Shown in pieces: positions 20,745 through 64,000 of a stretch of 64,000 bases of DNA; the first letter of the stretch is position 1; every line of letters starts with the position of its first letter. Position numbers and translations under genes: made by a program. Under the pieces are notes generated by a model. The model searched no databases, was not told the origin of the DNA, and was given only the letters and a program-made list of their open reading frames with translations. Origin of the DNA: Gammaproteobacteria bacterium (lineage in GTDB: Bacteria > Pseudomonadota > Gammaproteobacteria > Eutrophobiales > Eutrophobiaceae); the NCBI GenBank assembly GCA_963923955.1, contig OZ000552.1:870271-934270 (forward strand), read 5' to 3'.

Positions 20745-21105
20745 GGGGGCGTGTCTGGCTTCGACGCGAGTATCAAAACCCAAGGGGCATGCCGAGGTGC
20801 AGACTACCTCGTTAATCCATCTGCAAACTCATAGTTGCCAACGACGACAACTACGCACTCGCCGCTTAAATCCCGGTAGGGTGCCGTCTGACCGCAGTGT
20901 GCTTGTACGCGTGGAGCCAGGCGTCGACTCATACAAGCTCGCGATGAAACCTGTCCGGGGTGGATTCGTTAAAGCGTAACGGAATCGTTGTTTGTCTTCC
21001 CTGCCGTTCGGGTAGCACACAATTAAATAAATTGAGCCGGCTAAGCATGTAGAACCGAAGGCAGAGAGCTTGCGGACGCGGGTTCAACTCCCGCCGCCTC
21101 CACCA
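20745..21105 (+). ncRNA. ssrA: Transfer-messenger RNA (tmRNA, ssrA), tag peptide ANDDNYALAA
   Basis: 5' GGGGGCGUGUCUGGCUUCGACG..., 3' ...GGACGCGGGUUCAACUCCCGCCGCCUCCACCA, G3:U acceptor pair, tag ORF GCCAACGACGACAACTACGCACTCGCCGCTTAA; immediately downstream of smpB. Confidence 0.92.
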
Positions 21106-38384: not shown

Positions 38385-38877
38385 CCAAATAGCATCCTCA
38401 AATTCTGGTTTAAGACTAAGAAACCTGCTTGCATTGCGCTTTGTACAAGCCTCGTGAAGGTCTCGGCAAAAACCTTCTCGATGCCGCTAAAACATAAGGG
38501 AAACAAAGATAGGTCAAGGGATAGACACGCCGCGCCCACTTTGTCTGCCTGACAAACAAACCAAGCGAGCGCCGTTTATTTCATCTATGCCTGAGCCTGG
38601 CGGGTCTCACCCGTCGCAACGCTCCTCAGACATATAAAGTGCGGATTATAGTCTATCTAATATTTATATACCAATTAGTTCGCACCATCTCTGGCAAGAT
38701 TCTAGTTCCGGACGAAAAACCCGGCCTGTCGACCGGCCGATTCGCGGCGGCTGAAAACTTTGTTGGATTAACATTGCCAACGGGTTTATACTGGATAAGT
38801 CAAGGGGCTAAGGGTCGCTTTATGGGGGCGGGTTTGCGGCAATAACGCAAAGGCAATTTTATTTAGGATAAAAGCCG

Positions 38878-53664: not shown

Positions 53665-54975
53665 TCACGCCGCCTTGCTCGGCACACCGTCTAAGATGGA
53701 GCGGCCCTGGTGTTCGATCATGTATTCAAACTCGTGGCGGTAGTGTTTTAGGAAACTCTGCACCGGCCAGGCGGCGGCATCACCCAGGGCGCAGATGGTG
53801 CGGCCTTCGATCTTGTTCGCCACATCCACCAGCTTGTCCAGATCGTCGGTCACGCCCTTGCCGTCAATGATGCGCGAGAGCATGCGATACAGCCAGCCGG
53901 TGCCTTCGCGGCACGGCGTACACTGCCCGCAGGACTCGGCGTAATAAAAACGCGAGATGCGGCGCAGCATCCGGACCATGCAGGTGCTCTCATCCATCAC
54001 CACCACGGCGCCGGAGCCGATGGAGGAGCCGGTGATCTTCTGCACCGAGTCGTAATCCATATTCGCCTGCATCATCAACTCGCCCGGCACCACCGGCACC
54101 GACGATCCGCCCGGGATGACGGCCTTTAACTCACGCCCCTTCCAGACGCCGCCGGTCAGCGCCAGCAAGTCCTTGAACGGCATGCCCAGCGGCACTTCAA
54201 AGTTGCCCGGCTTTTCCACATGACCGCTGACGGAGAAGCACTTGGTGCCGCCGCTGTTTTCCACGCCCAGCTCGGCAAACCATGCCGCGCCGCGGCGGAG
54301 GATGCTGGGGACGGAACTGAAGCTCTCGGTGTTGTTGATCGTGGTCGGCCGCCCATAGAGACCGTATTGCGCCGGAAAAGGTGGCTTGAAACGCGGCTGG
54401 CCGGGCTTGCCTTCCAGGGACTCCAGCAGGGCGGTCTCCTCGCCGCAGATATAAGCACCGGCGCCCAGCGTGCCGTAAATATGGATGGTCAAGCCCGTGC
54501 CCATAATGTCCTCGCCCAGCAAACCCTCGGCGTAGGCCTCGGCCAGTGCGCCCTCAAAGCGCCGCCAGGGCTCGTCCATGAATTCGCCGCGGATGTAATT
54601 GTACGCCACGCTTGCGCCCATCGCATAGCAGGCAATCGCCAGCCCCTCAATCAGGGAGTGCGGGTTCAGGCGCAGGATGTCGCGATCCTTGCATGTCCCC
54701 GGCTCGCTCTCATCCGAGTTGCACACCACATATTTTTGCACCGGCGAATCCCCCGCCATGAAGCTCCATTTCAGGCCGGTCGGGAAACCCGCCCCGCCAC
54801 GCCCGCGCAGGCCCGATGCCTTGACCTCTTCGATGATGTCTTTGGGCGGGGTCTGCTCGGCCAAGATCTTTTTCCAGGCCTCATAGCCGCCGACCTTGGC
54901 GTAATTCGCCAGCGTCCAGGGTTGCTTGTACTTCAGCGTGGCGTAGCAGACCGCATTTAGTTTGTCGTCATTCAT
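53665..54975 (-). CDS. nuoF: NADH-quinone oxidoreductase subunit F
   Basis: FMN/NADH site [13 protein letters not shown], 4Fe-4[11 protein letters not shown]; 436 aa. Confidence 0.93.
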
Positions 54976-54995: not shown

Positions 54996-55217
54996 TTATA
55001 CAAAATTCCGACCATTGCCGATCTTCATCAGGCCTTTCAAGGCCAGGCGGATTTCATCCACCTGTCGCTTGGGCGCGATAAACACGCCTTCCGGCATGAT
55101 TTCAGCCGCTAAAAATTCATCTAAATTGGGAATAGACTGAACCCGCGCGGCAGCGCCAAACAGCCGCTCATAGCCGCCGGAGGCGTCTCTCGGTTTTCTA
55201 TCTGCGATCCTGGCCAT
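54996..55217 (-). CDS. Small hypothetical protein (73 aa) encoded inside the nuo operon
   Basis: ATG at 55217 overlaps the 3' end of the MTase-like gene by 20 nt; ends 20 nt before nuoF; no recognisable domain. Confidence 0.35.
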
Positions 55218-55974
55218 TCAAATCACAACCTATAAAGTTGCGGCGCTGCAAGCGGCAAGCCTCCAGCACAGTAAAATCACCGGCGGCCGGATCAAGCACA
55301 AGATCGCCTTCGTTAGTAACCGCCGCCAGCAGTTGCCCTTGCAAGTCAATAGGCTTGCGGTGCGGATGCGTACCCTTCGGTGCCTTCTCTCGCCAGGTAT
55401 CCGTTATATTGTGGATCTTCCAGACGCCTTTAGCCCTGCGCGGTCGCTTCTGCAACACCACGCAGTATTCGGTTATCCGGCGCGTACGGTAGCCCATGCC
55501 CATCCGGCCCTTGTCCCAGTTCACCATATCGACCACATCGAATGCCGTGCCTGCCAGCCAGGAACGAAAGCCATTGAGCAGTTCAAATTTATCCACCCAC
55601 AAAAACAAATGGCCGCTGGGCATCAGCGCCCGGTCCATGCCCTGCACAAAACGGGCGATGGTTTCATCGTTCATCTGCTTGAGTTCACATCGGGCCTTGC
55701 CCCGGCTCTTACCCTCATTGCCGTAACTCATCTTGTTCAGTATGCCGCGATATTGCGGATCTAAGAAGGCGACTGGAATGGATGCCGGCGGCAGCTGCGC
55801 CAATAACTTCAGCCCGTCCATCTTTAGCCGTTTGTTGGTTTTAATGCCACGCGGCAATTTGATGGTCGGCGGCGCAATGTCGCGTCGGGCGGAGAATACG
55901 GATGCCGCTGCTTGGTCAAAGCGCATGTCTGTTATCGGCTTTATTATGTTCTTGGCAGTTCTGGCCATGCTCAT
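55198..55974 (-). CDS. Beta-class DNA amino-methyltransferase-like protein (PF01555-like) with degenerate motifs, inserted between nuoE and nuoF
   Basis: Motif IV-like FLDPQYRG and C-terminal motif X/I-like HPHRKPIDLQGQLLAAVTNEGDLVLDPAAGDFTV (canonical HPTQKP...DPFxGSGTT); same overall layout as CcrM-type MTases; ATG 55974 lies 12 nt after the nuoE stop. Confidence 0.6.
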   Translation of the reverse strand: MSMARTAKNIIKPITDMRFDQAAASVFSARRDIAPPTIKLPRGIKTNKRLKMDGLKLLAQLPPASIPVAFLDPQYRGILNKMSYGNEGKSRGKARCELKQMNDETIARFVQGMDRALMPSGHLFLWVDKFELLNGFRSWLAGTAFDVVDMVNWDKGRMGMGYRTRRITEYCVVLQKRPRRAKGVWKIHNITDTWREKAPKGTHPHRKPIDLQGQLLAAVTNEGDLVLDPAAGDFTVLEACRLQRRNFIGCDLNGQDRR

Positions 55975-55985
55975 CAATCGTCCGT

Positions 55986-56489
55986 TTATTTCAGGCCGTC
56001 CAGGATGGCGTTGACCTTATCCTTGTTCAGGTTTTCGTGATAGACATGATCGACCATCATCATCGGCGCGGCGCAGCAGGCGGCCAGGCATTCTTCTTCG
56101 TTTTTAAGGTAGATGCGGCCATCGGCGGTGGACTCGCCGGTCTTGATGCCCAGGCGTTTCTCGATGTGCGCCACGATCTCATCGGCACCGCGCAACATGC
56201 AGGAGATGTTGGTGCAGACCGAGACGCTGTGCCGCCCGCAGGGACGAGTCTCCAGCATGGAATAAAAACTCGCCACTTCATACACGGCAATCTTCGGCAT
56301 ATCCAGATAATCAGCCACCGCATCCATCAAGGCGGTGGTGAGATAGCCGCCGTTCTCGTGCTGCGCCTCACGCAAGGCCGCCAGCACCGCGGACTGTTTT
56401 TGATCGGGCGGATATTTTTCTAACCAATGATCGATCTCGGCGCGCAGGTGCGCAGACAAGGCCGGTGTTGCAGTCTCACTCATGCGCAT
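55986..56489 (-). CDS. nuoE: NADH-quinone oxidoreductase subunit E
   Basis: 2Fe-2S thioredoxin-like cysteines (CGRHSVSVCTNISC, CLAACCAAP); start trimmed to MRMSETA with GGAG upstream. Confidence 0.9.
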   Translation of the reverse strand: MRMSETATPALSAHLRAEIDHWLEKYPPDQKQSAVLAALREAQHENGGYLTTALMDAVADYLDMPKIAVYEVASFYSMLETRPCGRHSVSVCTNISCMLRGADEIVAHIEKRLGIKTGESTADGRIYLKNEEECLAACCAAPMMMVDHVYHENLNKDKVNAILDGLK

Positions 56490-56526
56490 GGCTCCGATCT
56501 CGGCAGGCGGCGAGGGAGGAGAAACC

Positions 56527-57780
56527 TCATCGGTCGATCTCCCCGAAGACGATGTCCTGGGTGCCGATAACAGCCACCACATCGGCCAGCATGTGGCCGG
56601 TGACCATCTCGTTCATGGAGGCCAGATGGGCAAAGCCCGGGGCGCGGATCTTGACTCGATAGGGTTTATTCGCTCCATCGGAGACCAGGTAAATCCCGAA
56701 CTCGCCTTTGGGGTGTTCCACCGCGCAATAGACCTCGCCCTCCGGCACGCAGTAGCCCTCGGTGAATAGTTTGAAGTGATGGATCAGCGCCTCCATGTCG
56801 CCCTTCATATCCTCGCGTTTGGGGGGAACGAGCTTGTGGTCGTCGATCACCACCGGGCCGGGGTGGGCGCGCAGCCAGTCCACGCACTGGCGAATGATGC
56901 GATTCGACTGGCGCATCTCTTCCACACGCACCAGGTAGCGATCATAGCAATCGCCGTTCACGCCCACGGGGATGGCGAAGTCCAGTTCATCATAGACTTC
57001 ATAGGGCTGCTTCTTGCGCAAGTCCCACTCCACGCCGGAGCCGCGTAACATCGGGCCGGTAAAGCCCAGCTGCACGGCGCGCTCCGCCGTTACCACGCCG
57101 ATGCCGACCGTGCGCTGCTTCCAGATGCGGTTATCTGTGAGCAGGGTCTCATACTCATCCACGCGCTCGGGAAAGCGCGCGGTGAAGTCCTCGATAAAAT
57201 CCAGCAAGGAGCCCTGGCGGTTTTCATTCAAGCGCTTGATCTCTGTTTCATCCTTCCACTGCGAGGGGCGGTATTGCGGCATGCGCGCCGGCAGGTCGCG
57301 ATAGACGCCGCCGGGGCGGTAATAGGTGGCGTGCATGCGGGTACCGGAGACGGCTTCGTAGCAATCCATCAGGTCTTCGCGCTCGCGAAAGCAATACAGG
57401 AACATGGTCATGGCGCCGATGTCCAGCCCGTGCGCGCCCAGCCACATGAGGTGGTTCAAGATGCGGGTGATCTCGTCATACATGACGCGGATGTACTGCG
57501 CCCGCCGCGGCGGGGTGAGCTGGAGCAACCGCTCAATGGCCAGCACATAGGCGTGTTCGTTGCACATCATGGAGACATAGTCCAGCCGGTCCATGTAGCC
57601 GATGCTTTGGTTATAAGGCTTGCTCTCGGCCAGCTTCTCGGTGCCGCGGTGCAGCAGGCCGATGTGCGGATCGGCGCGCTCGATCACCTCGCCGTCCATC
57701 TCCAACACCAGCCGCAGCACCCCGTGCGCGGCCGGGTGCTGCGGGCCGAAGTTCATGGTCATGTTGCGGATCTCAGGCAT
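56527..57780 (-). CDS. nuoD: NADH-quinone oxidoreductase subunit D
   Basis: 417 aa, 49 kDa subunit; [24 protein letters not shown]. Confidence 0.93.
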
Positions 57781-59445: not shown

Positions 59446-59692
59446 ACGCCAACTTTACGCCCTCTTTTCATCTAACCCGTCATTCCTGTGCAAGAACGCC
59501 ATCCCTGCCTGCGAGGAGGGCAGGAGTCCACCCGGTTGCCTCCCTCCTCGTCATTGCTGCAAAAGCTCGTCCCCGTGGAAACGGGGGCAGGAATCCAGGC
59601 AGAGAGAGCCATTGTAAGCCCTCTTTTCACCTAACCCGTCATTCCTGCGGAAGCAGGAATCTAGGCCAGATAAGGGACCTTAAGCCCTCTGT
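59446..59692. repeat. Array of three or more degenerate copies of a short palindromic intergenic repeat (dRS3-like) upstream of nuoA
   Basis: Units share GCCCTCTTTTCAYCTAACCCGTCATTCCTGYG ... GCAGGAATCYAGGCAGA; internal hairpins ATTCCTGC-ggaa-GCAGGAAT, CCCTGCC/GGCAGG and CCCGT-ggaa-ACGGG. Confidence 0.7.
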
Positions 59693-60284: not shown

Positions 60285-60312
60285 ATGGGGCAGGAATCCA
60301 AGCAGAAAGTAC
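60285..60312. repeat. Partial copy (3' module) of the dRS3-like repeat
   Basis: GGGGCAGGAATCCAAGCAGAAAG. Confidence 0.6.
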
Positions 60313-62171: not shown

Positions 62172-62217
62172 GCTTTCCGAGACTGGCACGGCAATCGGGC
62201 GTTGATGTCGCTTGCTC

Positions 62218-62400
62218 AGCGCAAACATCCCTAGCGAGGGCAGGAATCTAGGTAGAATGCACATTTTAAGCCATCTCTCCGCCTAACCCGTCATTCCTGC
62301 GTAAGAACGTCACCCCTGCCTACGAGCAGGTGCAGGAATCCAAGCAAAGGGCACCAGTTTTAAGCCTTCTTTTCAAGTGCAAAATGCCTGTGTTCTTGAA
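62218..62400. repeat. Two further copies (one full, one partial) of the dRS3-like palindromic repeat
   Basis: TTTTAAGCCATCTCTCCGCCTAACCCGTCATTCCTGCGTAAGAACGTCACCCCTGCCTACGAGCAGGTGCAGGAATCCAAGCAAAGGGC, then TTTTAAGCCTTCTTTTCA... Confidence 0.7.
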
Positions 62401-62441
62401 CACCGGGAACACCAGCTCTGTCGCAGGATTGTCAAACAGGG

Positions 62442-63227
62442 TCATTTGTACCTGGAAACTGCGAAATTCACGAAGGCGCTGCACACGACGATCATGAAAT
62501 GTGCGTCAGATTCATCGACTGCAATATTGTCATCCAAAGACGCATGACGAATGCCGCCCTCATCCGAAGCGTATCCGTAAAGCTTGTTGAGACCGTCTCT
62601 AAAAGCAGCATGCATCTGCTTTTGTTGATCCAGGATTCCAAGGGCTTCCCCTAATGTCGCCTTGTCTTTTCCCGAGATTACCTTTGCAATGCTCTCGACC
62701 GCAGAAATTGCTTCCTTGATCGCATTCGAATAATCCGCATTGGGCTTTTGTGAGAACGCTTCCAATGCCCGTCGAATGTGTTCTCTAGCCCCGGAAAATT
62801 TATCATCCAAGTTTGCAGCGGCCGATACAGCCCCAATTTCTGTTGCATCGGAGATCGGCACCAGTCTTCTATTGATAAACCGGTACGCTGATTTTTCCTC
62901 TTCAAGTATCCAGTTGAACGGTTTGGCCATCGATGGATCGATTTTTTTAACAATAAATTCCACGAAGTTATAAATCTCGTGCCATTCCAATTCAAAATAT
63001 CTTTCCCTCAAGTTTGAGTTTTTTTGATATATTTTTATGCCTGTTTCATCATCAGGAATTTTGAAAAACTCATCAAAAGTACGATGGTATCTGACGCTAA
63101 TGAATTTGCCGGAAAATACCACAGCATTTATTTTATTCCACAATCGATTTCTAAGTGCATCATCAATGCTGCCAGACTGATAAAGCCTTTGGGGAACTGT
63201 TACTCCAATCCGATCAGAAAATCTCAT
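62442..63227 (-). CDS. Possible Abi/defence-associated protein embedded downstream of hsdS (weak AbiJ N-terminal-family resemblance, tentative)
   Basis: 261 aa from MRFSDRIG (GGAGAG RBS 7 nt upstream of ATG 63227); AT-rich; 65 bp after the hsdS stop; no nucleotide-binding or MTase motif; C-terminal GGIRHASLDD segment. Confidence 0.4.
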   Translation of the reverse strand: MRFSDRIGVTVPQRLYQSGSIDDALRNRLWNKINAVVFSGKFISVRYHRTFDEFFKIPDDETGIKIYQKNSNLRERYFELEWHEIYNFVEFIVKKIDPSMAKPFNWILEEEKSAYRFINRRLVPISDATEIGAVSAAANLDDKFSGAREHIRRALEAFSQKPNADYSNAIKEAISAVESIAKVISGKDKATLGEALGILDQQKQMHAAFRDGLNKLYGYASDEGGIRHASLDDNIAVDESDAHFMIVVCSAFVNFAVSRYK

Positions 63228-63292
63228 TGCTCTCTCCATTTTAGAATTTCACGGGGCATTGTTGCCGGTGTGTCTTGCATCGCGATATTATT

Positions 63293-64000
63293 TTACAGCG
63301 CCTTATCAAGGGCTTTATTTGTCTCATGTGCAAAGGCTTCGCGCAAGACGGCTTGCATCAGGGCATCGGCGTGGGTTTGGTTTTGGGTGATTTGAGTTTG
63401 CAGTTTATCGCAGAGGGCGAGAAGTTTTTCGGCTTTGGCAACAATGGTTTGTTGTTCTTGGAGAGGAGCAAGCGGGATCAACTGTGAATATACTTCATCT
63501 CGGTTCAAGCCGGGTTTTATTCCTTTGCCTAATTGACTGAGATTCAACGATTTCAATAAATAGGTTAGATAAGCAAACCCAAAAAGGTGCGACTCCTCAA
63601 TGTAATAGGCTACATCAGTAGTCCAAGAACCCCCTTCTGCAATTTGTAATGCGCCGGCAGAGCCTTTGCGTCCAACGATGATTGAACGTTTATCGGTTAA
63701 TCTAGAGGAGTGAAAACCAACTACTCCGTTTGAACCATAAACAGGATATTCCCCCACTGGTTTTGTTTGGCTCTTCGGAAGAGCCTTCCCATAGTGCATC
63801 AAGATAATTTCACCCAGTCGGCACCAGGCCCAGCCCTTGGGTAGTGCGAAGGGTTTTTCTTTTTCGTTTATTGGTGGCAGGGGTTTTTGTTGTTTGATTT
63901 TTTTGGCTTTGGTCAGTTTGGCTTTTTCGGCCTTGATGCGCGCTAAGAGTGCGGCGGCGGGTTCTGCACTCGGGTTGGCGCTGCGCCAGGCAATGGTCAG
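63293..64000 (-). CDS. hsdS: Type I restriction-modification specificity subunit HsdS (3' part; the 5' end lies beyond the window)
   Basis: TRD start LPKGWAWCRLGEIILMHYGKALP ... NGVVGFHS ... conserved repeat PLAPLQEQQTIVAKAEKLLALCDKL. The frame stays open to position 64000 and reads ...ARIKAEKAKLTKAKK..., the central conserved region. Confidence 0.8.
   Translation of the reverse strand: MTIAWRSANPSAEPAAALLARIKAEKAKLTKAKKIKQQKPLPPINEKEKPFALPKGWAWCRLGEIILMHYGKALPKSQTKPVGEYPVYGSNGVVGFHSSRLTDKRSIIVGRKGSAGALQIAEGGSWTTDVAYYIEESHLFGFAYLTYLLKSLNLSQLGKGIKPGLNRDEVYSQLIPLAPLQEQQTIVAKAEKLLALCDKLQTQITQNQTHADALMQAVLREAFAHETNKALDKAL

Follow-up and report, generated by a model that had tools for sequence, protein, structure and literature searches.

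The window analysed here, a stretch of 64,000 nucleotides of gammaproteobacterial DNA, ends inside a type I restriction–modification (R-M) specificity gene, hsdS, which is followed on the same strand, past a short spacer, by an AT-rich gene for a protein of 261 amino acids (aa). The coordinates of both genes, of the spacers on either side of the 261-aa gene and of its domains and candidate active-site codons are collected in Table 1.

Table 1. Features at the end of the window, with positions counted from its first base
Feature	Position	Strand	Basis
Spacer from core MRJP-family gene to 3′ end of AbiJ-NTD4 gene, 270 bp	62172..62441	.	Repeats, composition
AbiJ-NTD4/HEPN gene, 261 aa, PADLOC candidate family PDC-S32	62442..63227 (including stop codon)	minus	Pfam and PADLOC
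C-terminal HEPN-fold domain, residues 141-261, predicted RNase effector	62445..62807	minus	
R227-H228 codons, invariant pair at position of HEPN R-phi-x(n)-H motif	62544..62549	minus	Conservation
H150 codon, first HEPN helix, candidate substitute catalytic residue	62778..62780	minus	Conservation in 258 sequences
N-terminal AbiJ-NTD4 domain, residues 1-140, predicted sensor/regulatory module	62808..63227	minus	
Spacer between hsdS and the gene, 65 bp, GGAG ribosome-binding site at 63234-63237	63228..63292	minus	Sequence, consensus scan
3′ part of type I R-M specificity gene hsdS	63293..>64000	minus	Methylase_S and Specificity_I matches

The hsd locus and its downstream gene

The hsdS reading frame is open up to base 64000 and ends in a TAA stop codon at 63293-63295, giving 235 codons that cover the central conserved region, the second target-recognition domain and the C-terminal conserved helix. 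An earlier note on this DNA had placed the window end inside hsdS on the strength of its target-recognition domain and a conserved repeat peptide; the peptide LIPLAPLQEQQTIVAKAEKLLALCDKL is present in the frame, and the assignment holds in profile searches, with E values of 1.2e-15 against Methylase_S (Pfam scan) and 1.4e-40 against PADLOC Specificity_I. The fragment shows the defining features of HsdS, the specificity subunit of type I R-M systems, namely a Methylase_S target-recognition domain and the conserved central and C-terminal helices. Relatives of the visible part are about 400-412 aa long and 52-63% identical to it, and the length of HsdS relatives (~404-412 aa) places roughly 170 further hsdS codons beyond the window. 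Proteins on record from one contig include one identical to the 261-aa protein (P0001) and two of its neighbours (P0241 and P0242); for HsdS, by contrast, the records contain nothing that exceeds 63% identity to the 235 visible residues. Most simply, this would mean that the source annotation lacks an HsdS protein product because the gene is disrupted past base 64000 or has been flagged there as a pseudogene. On this indirect evidence, the source protein set, which has the products of the neighbouring genes, appears to lack HsdS, and the local hsdS may be a pseudogene and the hsd locus decayed. A related HsdS (P0125) is encoded in an operon of the layout hsdR-x-hsdM-x-hsdS-x, with an unrelated cargo gene immediately after hsdS, which marks this slot as a place where variable cargo occurs. 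Another related HsdS (P0121) is truncated and stranded among transposases.

The open reading frame downstream of hsdS (62442..63239, 265 aa) contains two in-frame ATG codons, of which the second (63225-63227) opens the 261-aa product MRFSDRIG... and has the GGAG six bases upstream. The 261-aa start is preferred because the upstream ATG at 63239 lacks a Shine-Dalgarno sequence and homologues begin at an equivalent M-x-F-S-D-R; residues are numbered from it unless stated otherwise, so that the GGIRHASLDD segment occupies residues 224-233. The earlier description of an AT-rich gene with a good ribosome-binding site 65 bp after hsdS is borne out, the spacing being exact. With 42.6% GC (43% at third codon positions, GC3) the gene shares a foreign base composition with the adjacent hsdS part (47.6% GC), both lying at 43-48% GC against 56-60% for the core; the adjacent MRJP-family and nuoD core genes are at 59-62% GC with GC3 of 75-84%. 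A consensus scan of the 65-bp spacer found no terminator-like or promoter-like site on the gene strand, and for this reason the gene is probably read through from hsdS, as the 3′-terminal gene of a type I hsd transcript. The genes on its other side belong to the core, comprising an MRJP/SGL-family gene, a 193-aa ORF and the nuo operon, which places the AbiJ-NTD4 gene at the edge of an AT-rich island rather than between hsd genes. Of the arrangement originally proposed, then, the position directly downstream of hsdS stands, whereas embedding within the hsd operon gives way to a position at the end of the hsd locus.

As had been noted, the 3′ side of the gene abuts repeats. The 270-bp spacer holds two imperfect copies, ~92 bp apart (62233-62276 and 62325-62370), of a dispersed ATTCCTGC...GCAGGAAT element, further copies of which lie in unrelated intergenic regions at 59465-59665 and 60288. 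Over the longest repeat family, the copies are 70% alike. No Rfam match was obtained between 60 and 64 kb of the window. A drop in GC within the spacer makes it the likely boundary of the AT-rich island.

Family membership, fold and putative active site

The earlier note had seen a weak resemblance to AbiJ-family abortive-infection proteins, and profile searches turn this into a firm assignment. Pfam AbiJ_NTD4 (PF18863) matched residues 5-142 of the 265-aa ORF scanned with 82.7 bits (E 4.9e-23, cut-off 34), spanning positions 1-150 of the 152 in the profile, a domain of ~150 residues. Both PADLOC PDC-S32 models matched at full length (E 2.7e-86 and 4.3e-78; residues 3-263 of the 265-aa ORF on profile positions 5-280 of 285), as expected of a single-gene system, and no conserved partner gene accompanies the family. 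Plasmid homologues are named 'AbiJ-NTD4 domain-containing protein' by NCBI. Among the other models that had been suggested for a check, DUF4145 and Abi_2 gave no match in the Pfam scan, nor did PrrC-type models, and no ATPase domain was found. NCBIfam STM4504/CBY_0614 (NF046078) scored 16.9 bits against a cut-off of 150, and Pfam Abi_C (PF14355) gave 14 bits (E 0.057), below its cut-off of 24, in a local match of residues 227-260 (265-aa ORF numbering) to profile positions 48-81 of 83 with no net gap. The identical protein P0001 carries a precomputed Abi_C hit from a newer Pfam version, a hit absent from the other 119 proteins among the matches listed. The 261-aa protein is a divergent additional member of the catalogued PDC-S32/AbiJ-NTD4-HEPN candidate family.

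The combination of an AbiJ-NTD4 domain with an AbiJ-type HEPN domain was defined computationally by Anantharaman et al. in 2013, in whose proposal the N-terminal domains recognise phage components and keep a suicidal HEPN RNase in check (PMC3710099). PDC families were nominated by Payne et al. from genes embedded in BREX, DISARM or type I R-M loci (bioRxiv 10.1101/2024.01.29.577857), and as such they are defence candidates. The name 'PDC-S32' was not found in the literature searched, and the supplementary tables of that preprint contain neither 'PDC-S32' nor 'AbiJ' as text.

In the 261-aa protein, the AbiJ-NTD4 domain is made of six helices and a beta-hairpin and carries an invariant E111/R116 motif as well as an equally invariant N-terminal tail, M-x-F-S-[DE]-R-x-G, which is modelled with low confidence. 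Foldseek returned nothing significant for this domain, the best death-fold match being the Apaf-1 CARD (E 8, TM 0.46), and AbiJ goes unmentioned in a survey of death-like domains in bacteria (PMC8195603); a resemblance to the death fold is tentative. The C-terminal domain has the four-helix up-and-down fold of HEPN domains. It scored 9.4 for likeness to the HEPN domain of sacsin, and among toxins 8.8 for LsoA, 8.5 for AbiA, 8.4 for the HepN-family structure 5yep and 7.4 for AbiV, while no relative of solved structure was detectable by sequence.

The canonical HEPN Rx4-6H motif (R-phi-x3-5-H) is absent before the last helix throughout the family. In its place 200 of 201 family sequences have G-x-R-H, and 197 of these 200 have no histidine within positions +1 to +8. 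In an alignment of 258 sequences from many phyla, H150, E172, Y217, R227 and H228 are conserved in every member, E178 and G225 in all but one each, and D165, N168, K171 and C249 in 97-99%, while 90% have an acidic residue, Glu or Asp, at position 232. The 261-aa protein has every one of the family-invariant residues, and its R227-H228 is followed by A-S-L-D-D. The Abi_C match begins four residues upstream of R227, which locates the region of the canonical motif at or near R227-H228, though not its exact register. We infer from this that R227 would correspond to the arginine of the canonical motif and the acidic residues 232-233 to the position of its histidine. The active site is probably formed by R227-H228 with H150, D165, N168, K171, E172 and E178, and conservation this strict argues for a functional but differently built site. 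As the canonical motif is absent family-wide and Abi_C falls below its cut-off, it is from fold and conservation that we infer RNase activity of the HEPN domain. How non-canonical HEPN sites work may be approached through this family-wide loss of the canonical histidine in a setting where other residues are strictly conserved.

One alternative is that the HEPN-fold domain is no nuclease at all but an RNA- or nucleotide-binding regulator or adaptor, comparable to the non-catalytic MtlR or sacsin, in a protein that could still serve in defence. Loss of the distal histidine would fit such a role. However, R227, H228, H150, E172 and E178 are conserved across phyla in the manner of an active site, and AbiV, in which the canonical motif is also lacking (PMC3710099), has nevertheless been reported to be an RNase (PMC13064643). 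We consider a non-nuclease role unlikely, though it deserves some weight.

Distribution and genomic context of the family

A word-indexed search of 5.8 billion proteins returned 495 relatives, the nearest of which, apart from the identical P0001, is 56% identical. An exhaustive profile search of 1.84 billion representatives gave 6,947 clusters at 50% identity with E <= 1e-3 and 3,192 with E <= 1e-30, nearly all of them 265-300 aa long and of a single architecture. Among GTDB species-representative genomes, more than 556 stretches encode relatives of at most 46% identity, in Proteobacteria, Bacteroidota, Acidobacteriota, Chloroflexota, Firmicutes, Planctomycetota and one Bathyarchaeota MAG. Relatives also occur on 32 plasmids, mostly large plasmids of Enterococcus faecium and mostly conjugative by MOB-suite typing, as well as in 4 phage records and 14 IMG/VR viral contigs; a search of PHROGs gave none. 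Members of the family are carried on plasmids, on prophages and on integrase-flanked elements. The family is thus large and spans many phyla, plasmids and phages, yet it is catalogued only as a candidate.

Genomic context was sampled at 80 genome loci together with flanks of up to 10 kb in both directions. R-M genes were sought by iterated phmmer and tblastn, seeded with EcoKI HsdS, HsdM and HsdR and with the HsdS of the window, a search whose reach is EcoKI-like systems; none of the 80 loci had hsdS or hsdM within 10 kb, and a single weak helicase match was obtained. All-against-all clustering of the 804 neighbour ORFs found no neighbour family spanning more than four loci, and Pfam and PADLOC scans of the 138 immediate neighbours found no recurrent family, with at most three members each. 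There was likewise no conserved small partner ORF and no recurrent tandem-repeat array or antitoxin RNA in the family loci. Because neither a neighbour, a small ORF nor a repeat array recurs in the 80 loci, the family is a stand-alone single-gene unit, type I R-M linkage is not a family trait, and the position after hsdS is unusual for the family. The link to type I R-M put forward in the earlier note therefore survives as a local adjacency to hsdS and falls as a property of the family.

What does surround the relatives is in part mobile or defence-related, and includes N6_N4 methylases, RhuM, resolvases, transposases, an AbiEii-type ATPase, nSTAND, PDC-S05, PDC-S23 and type II and III methyltransferases. 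One of the two closest relatives has a phage terminase on one side and a CAP12-PCTIR TIR gene on the other, the second immediately follows a phage integrase, and plasmid copies adjoin Doc/AbrB, MNT/HepT and TIR genes. Many family loci lie among housekeeping genes (GatB, UvrA, ETF), however, so that an enrichment in defence islands is at most a possibility.

Copies on conjugative plasmids beside toxin–antitoxin (TA) modules and transposases, and next to integrases, would also suit an addiction or stabilisation toxin of the carrier island, plasmid or prophage, whose primary role is not against phages. Such a toxin is expected to come with an antitoxin, and no conserved antitoxin ORF or RNA accompanies the family; a single polypeptide lacking one cannot kill post-segregationally by the usual route. 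We think this explanation distinctly improbable.

A functional partnership with the type I R-M enzyme is a further possibility, in which the Hsd complex would keep the protein latent and phage anti-restriction proteins would release it, as for PrrC with EcoprrI. The local arrangement invites this idea, in that the gene follows hsdS by 65 bp with no terminator between them, that a related HsdS operon also has a cargo gene right after hsdS, and that PDC families were themselves nominated from R-M-embedded genes (10.1101/2024.01.29.577857). Set against it are the absence of hsdS and hsdM within 10 kb at all 80 loci and of recurring type I components among the 138 immediate neighbours, the lack of a PrrC-like ATPase domain, and a local hsdS that is possibly a pseudogene, so that we regard such a partnership as very unlikely. 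Placement beside type I R-M appears opportunistic rather than functional in the PDC-S32 family, which tempers reasoning from 'guilt by embedding'.

A type III TA pair of the AbiF, AbiV or ToxIN type, with the neighbouring repeats as RNA antitoxin, might be imagined from the two related copies ~92 bp apart that adjoin the gene and from AbiV, a HEPN toxin with an RNA antitoxin (PMC13064643), but it is effectively refuted: the repeats lie 3′ of the gene instead of upstream, share no more than 70% likeness over the longest repeat family and also turn up, as members of a dispersed family, in unrelated intergenic regions at 59.5 and 60.3 kb. The 65-bp spacer upstream of the gene and the flanks of the window contain no tandem array, the family loci show no consistent arrays, and the Rfam search of the window between 60 and 64 kb gave no match.

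Proposed function and comparison with known systems

Taken as a whole, the 261-aa gene is probably a stand-alone, horizontally acquired defence candidate of the PDC-S32 family, in which a sensor-like AbiJ-NTD4 domain is joined to a HEPN-fold domain and the protein acts as a phage-triggered RNase. The mechanism is modelled on AbiJ/Abi_C proteins such as SadR and on the general HEPN-Abi model. In the uninfected cell, the N-terminal domain would hold the HEPN RNase inactive. On infection, a phage component or replication intermediate would engage the N-terminal domain, upon which the HEPN domains would pair and cut RNA of the host, the phage or both, leading to a stop of translation and abortive infection. 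The gene would be cargo of the same small AT-rich island as hsdS and would add a second layer of defence independent of the R-M enzyme. Support for such a mechanism comes from the Abi_C protein SadR, which is an RNase whose HEPN motif is required for defence (PMC13590631). Against it counts that we found no published experimental test of a PDC-S32 or AbiJ-NTD4 protein. The locus offers a compact, natural, R-M-adjacent example of the family with its native upstream region.

One possible and more far-reaching hypothesis is that PDC-S32 proteins form a class of their own among single-gene immune effectors, and a widespread one, in which a prokaryotic death-fold-like AbiJ-NTD4 domain would drive trigger-dependent oligomerisation of the HEPN domain and a non-canonical site would be built from the R-H pair, the helix-1 histidine and acidic residues. 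We regard this as speculative, with a slim chance of being correct. If true, the death-fold reading would provide a mechanistic parallel to the CARD- and death-domain-driven assembly of effectors in animal innate immunity.

Among known systems, the closest counterpart of the 261-aa protein is PDC-S32 itself, with which it has the same length and two-domain architecture. It differs in its divergence, given that its nearest relative among 5.8 billion proteins is only 56% identical, and in lying directly after hsdS, an arrangement found in none of the 80 family loci examined. The STM4504/CBY_0614 prototype of AbiJ-NTD4 (NF046078) has the same named N-terminal domain and a similar length (a profile of 281 positions); the match to it, however, is weak and partial and points to a different subfamily.

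Lactococcal AbiJ (Abi-859) and SadR of S. aureus are likewise single-gene systems of ~260-280 aa in which a helical domain at the N-terminus is followed by a HEPN fold at the C-terminus. AbiJ/Abi_C proteins also have an arginine ~35 residues from the C-terminus, as here, and a phage-triggered RNase is the mechanism proposed in both cases (PMC3710099, PMC13590631, PMC13064643). The RNase activity of SadR and its role in defence depend on each of R225, N226 and H232 (RNEYGDAH; PMC13590631), whereas the protein described here reads R-H-x3-[D/E] and has no distal histidine. AbiJ-NTD4 is found in only 3 of 2,815 Abi_C proteins (PMC13590631).

AbiV resembles the 261-aa protein as a HEPN toxin that also lacks the canonical Rx4-6H motif (PMC3710099) and has been reported as an rRNA-degrading RNase (PMC13064643). 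It differs in having no N-terminal domain and in forming a type III TA pair with an RNA antitoxin (PMC13064643), no such RNA being seen at the local locus. With PrrC/RloC, our gene shares the setting of a toxin-type gene that lies within an hsd operon or at its end, and symE of E. coli K-12 provides a further example of a gene directly after hsdS. The defining features of PrrC and RloC are an ABC-type ATPase domain at the N-terminus and an obligate location inside hsd operons; the 261-aa protein, by contrast, has neither an ABC-ATPase nor an anticodon-nuclease domain and belongs to a family that is not linked to R-M.

The conserved N-terminal tail and possible variant forms of the family

Residues 1-8 of the 261-aa AbiJ-NTD4/HEPN protein form a tail, M-x-F-S-[DE]-R-x-G, that is invariant or nearly so throughout the PDC-S32 family, with F3, S4, R6 and G8 as the positions kept. 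In the predicted structure these residues have low model confidence (pLDDT 51-67), and the tail may serve as a peptide for docking or for autoinhibition.

Some genomes carry two neighbouring copies of the family. In Wocania ichthyoenteri the two are separated by 4 kb and score equally, each being 37.5% identical to the query. In a Bacteroidetes MAG, a partial copy follows a full one. Possible fusions or longer forms are seen in a Chiayiivirga locus, where a 765-aa ORF spans the family match but may be an artefact of ORF calling, and in P0311, a 539-aa family representative with about 265 additional residues at its C-terminus.

The edge of the island and its surroundings

A dispersed intergenic repeat family is present in the window, its core being the inverted repeat ATTCCTGC...GCAGGAAT and its unit approximately CTAACCCGTCATTCCTGYG.AAGAACG...GCAGGAATCC. 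Where core DNA meets the AT-rich hsdS/AbiJ-NTD4 island, the junction is filled by two copies. The family is similar to the dRS3/RS elements of Neisseria, which are found at the flanks of small mobile islands.

The protein collection includes a protein identical to the 261-aa query (P0001) and the products of two neighbouring genes (P0241 and P0242), all on the same 2.63-Mb contig, and the HsdS proteins in it reach at most 63% identity to the hsdS fragment seen in the window. The hsdS gene may, on this indirect indication, be a pseudogene, or be disrupted upstream, beyond window position 64000.

Elsewhere in the window, an ORF encoding a DNA methylase domain lies within the nuo operon, flanked by nuoE-like and nuoF-like genes, an odd site for a DNA methyltransferase. 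The tmRNA gene and the SAH riboswitch are both ordinary, and could assist in assigning the organism to the Proteobacteria.

Coordinates of features in the window and in the compared loci
Feature	Locus	Position	Strand	Remark
tmRNA gene	window	20745-21105	+	tag peptide ANDDNYALAA
SAH riboswitch	window	38560-38633	-	
nuoF-like gene	window	53665-54975		
DNA methylase-domain ORF	window	55198-55977	-	Pfam N6_N4_Mtase, E 1.1e-15
nuoE-like gene	window	55986-56582		
Dispersed repeat copies	window	59465-59530, 59585-59665, 60285-60302, 62233-62276, 62283-62345		intergenic
N-terminal tail	window	63204-63227	-	residues 1-8
Chiayiivirga ORF	L019	8507-10804		
Wocania ichthyoenteri copies	L042	6865-7695, 11084-11914		
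Bacteroidetes MAG copies	L051	116-949, 1201-1659		
symE, E. coli K-12	L085	1500-1841		directly 3' of hsdS
Lodged genes, related operon	L086	5939-7054, 8465-9004, 10236-10817		hsdR-hsdM gap, hsdM-hsdS gap, after hsdS

Cargo genes in other hsd operons

Three unannotated or little-known genes are lodged in a related type I operon (L086), the one after hsdS carrying an HI_0787_N domain, and all three are further embedded candidates. For accessory genes carried as cargo at an hsd operon's 3' end there is a well-known counterpart in E. coli K-12, where hsdS is immediately followed by symE, a small gene, and by symR, its antisense RNA.
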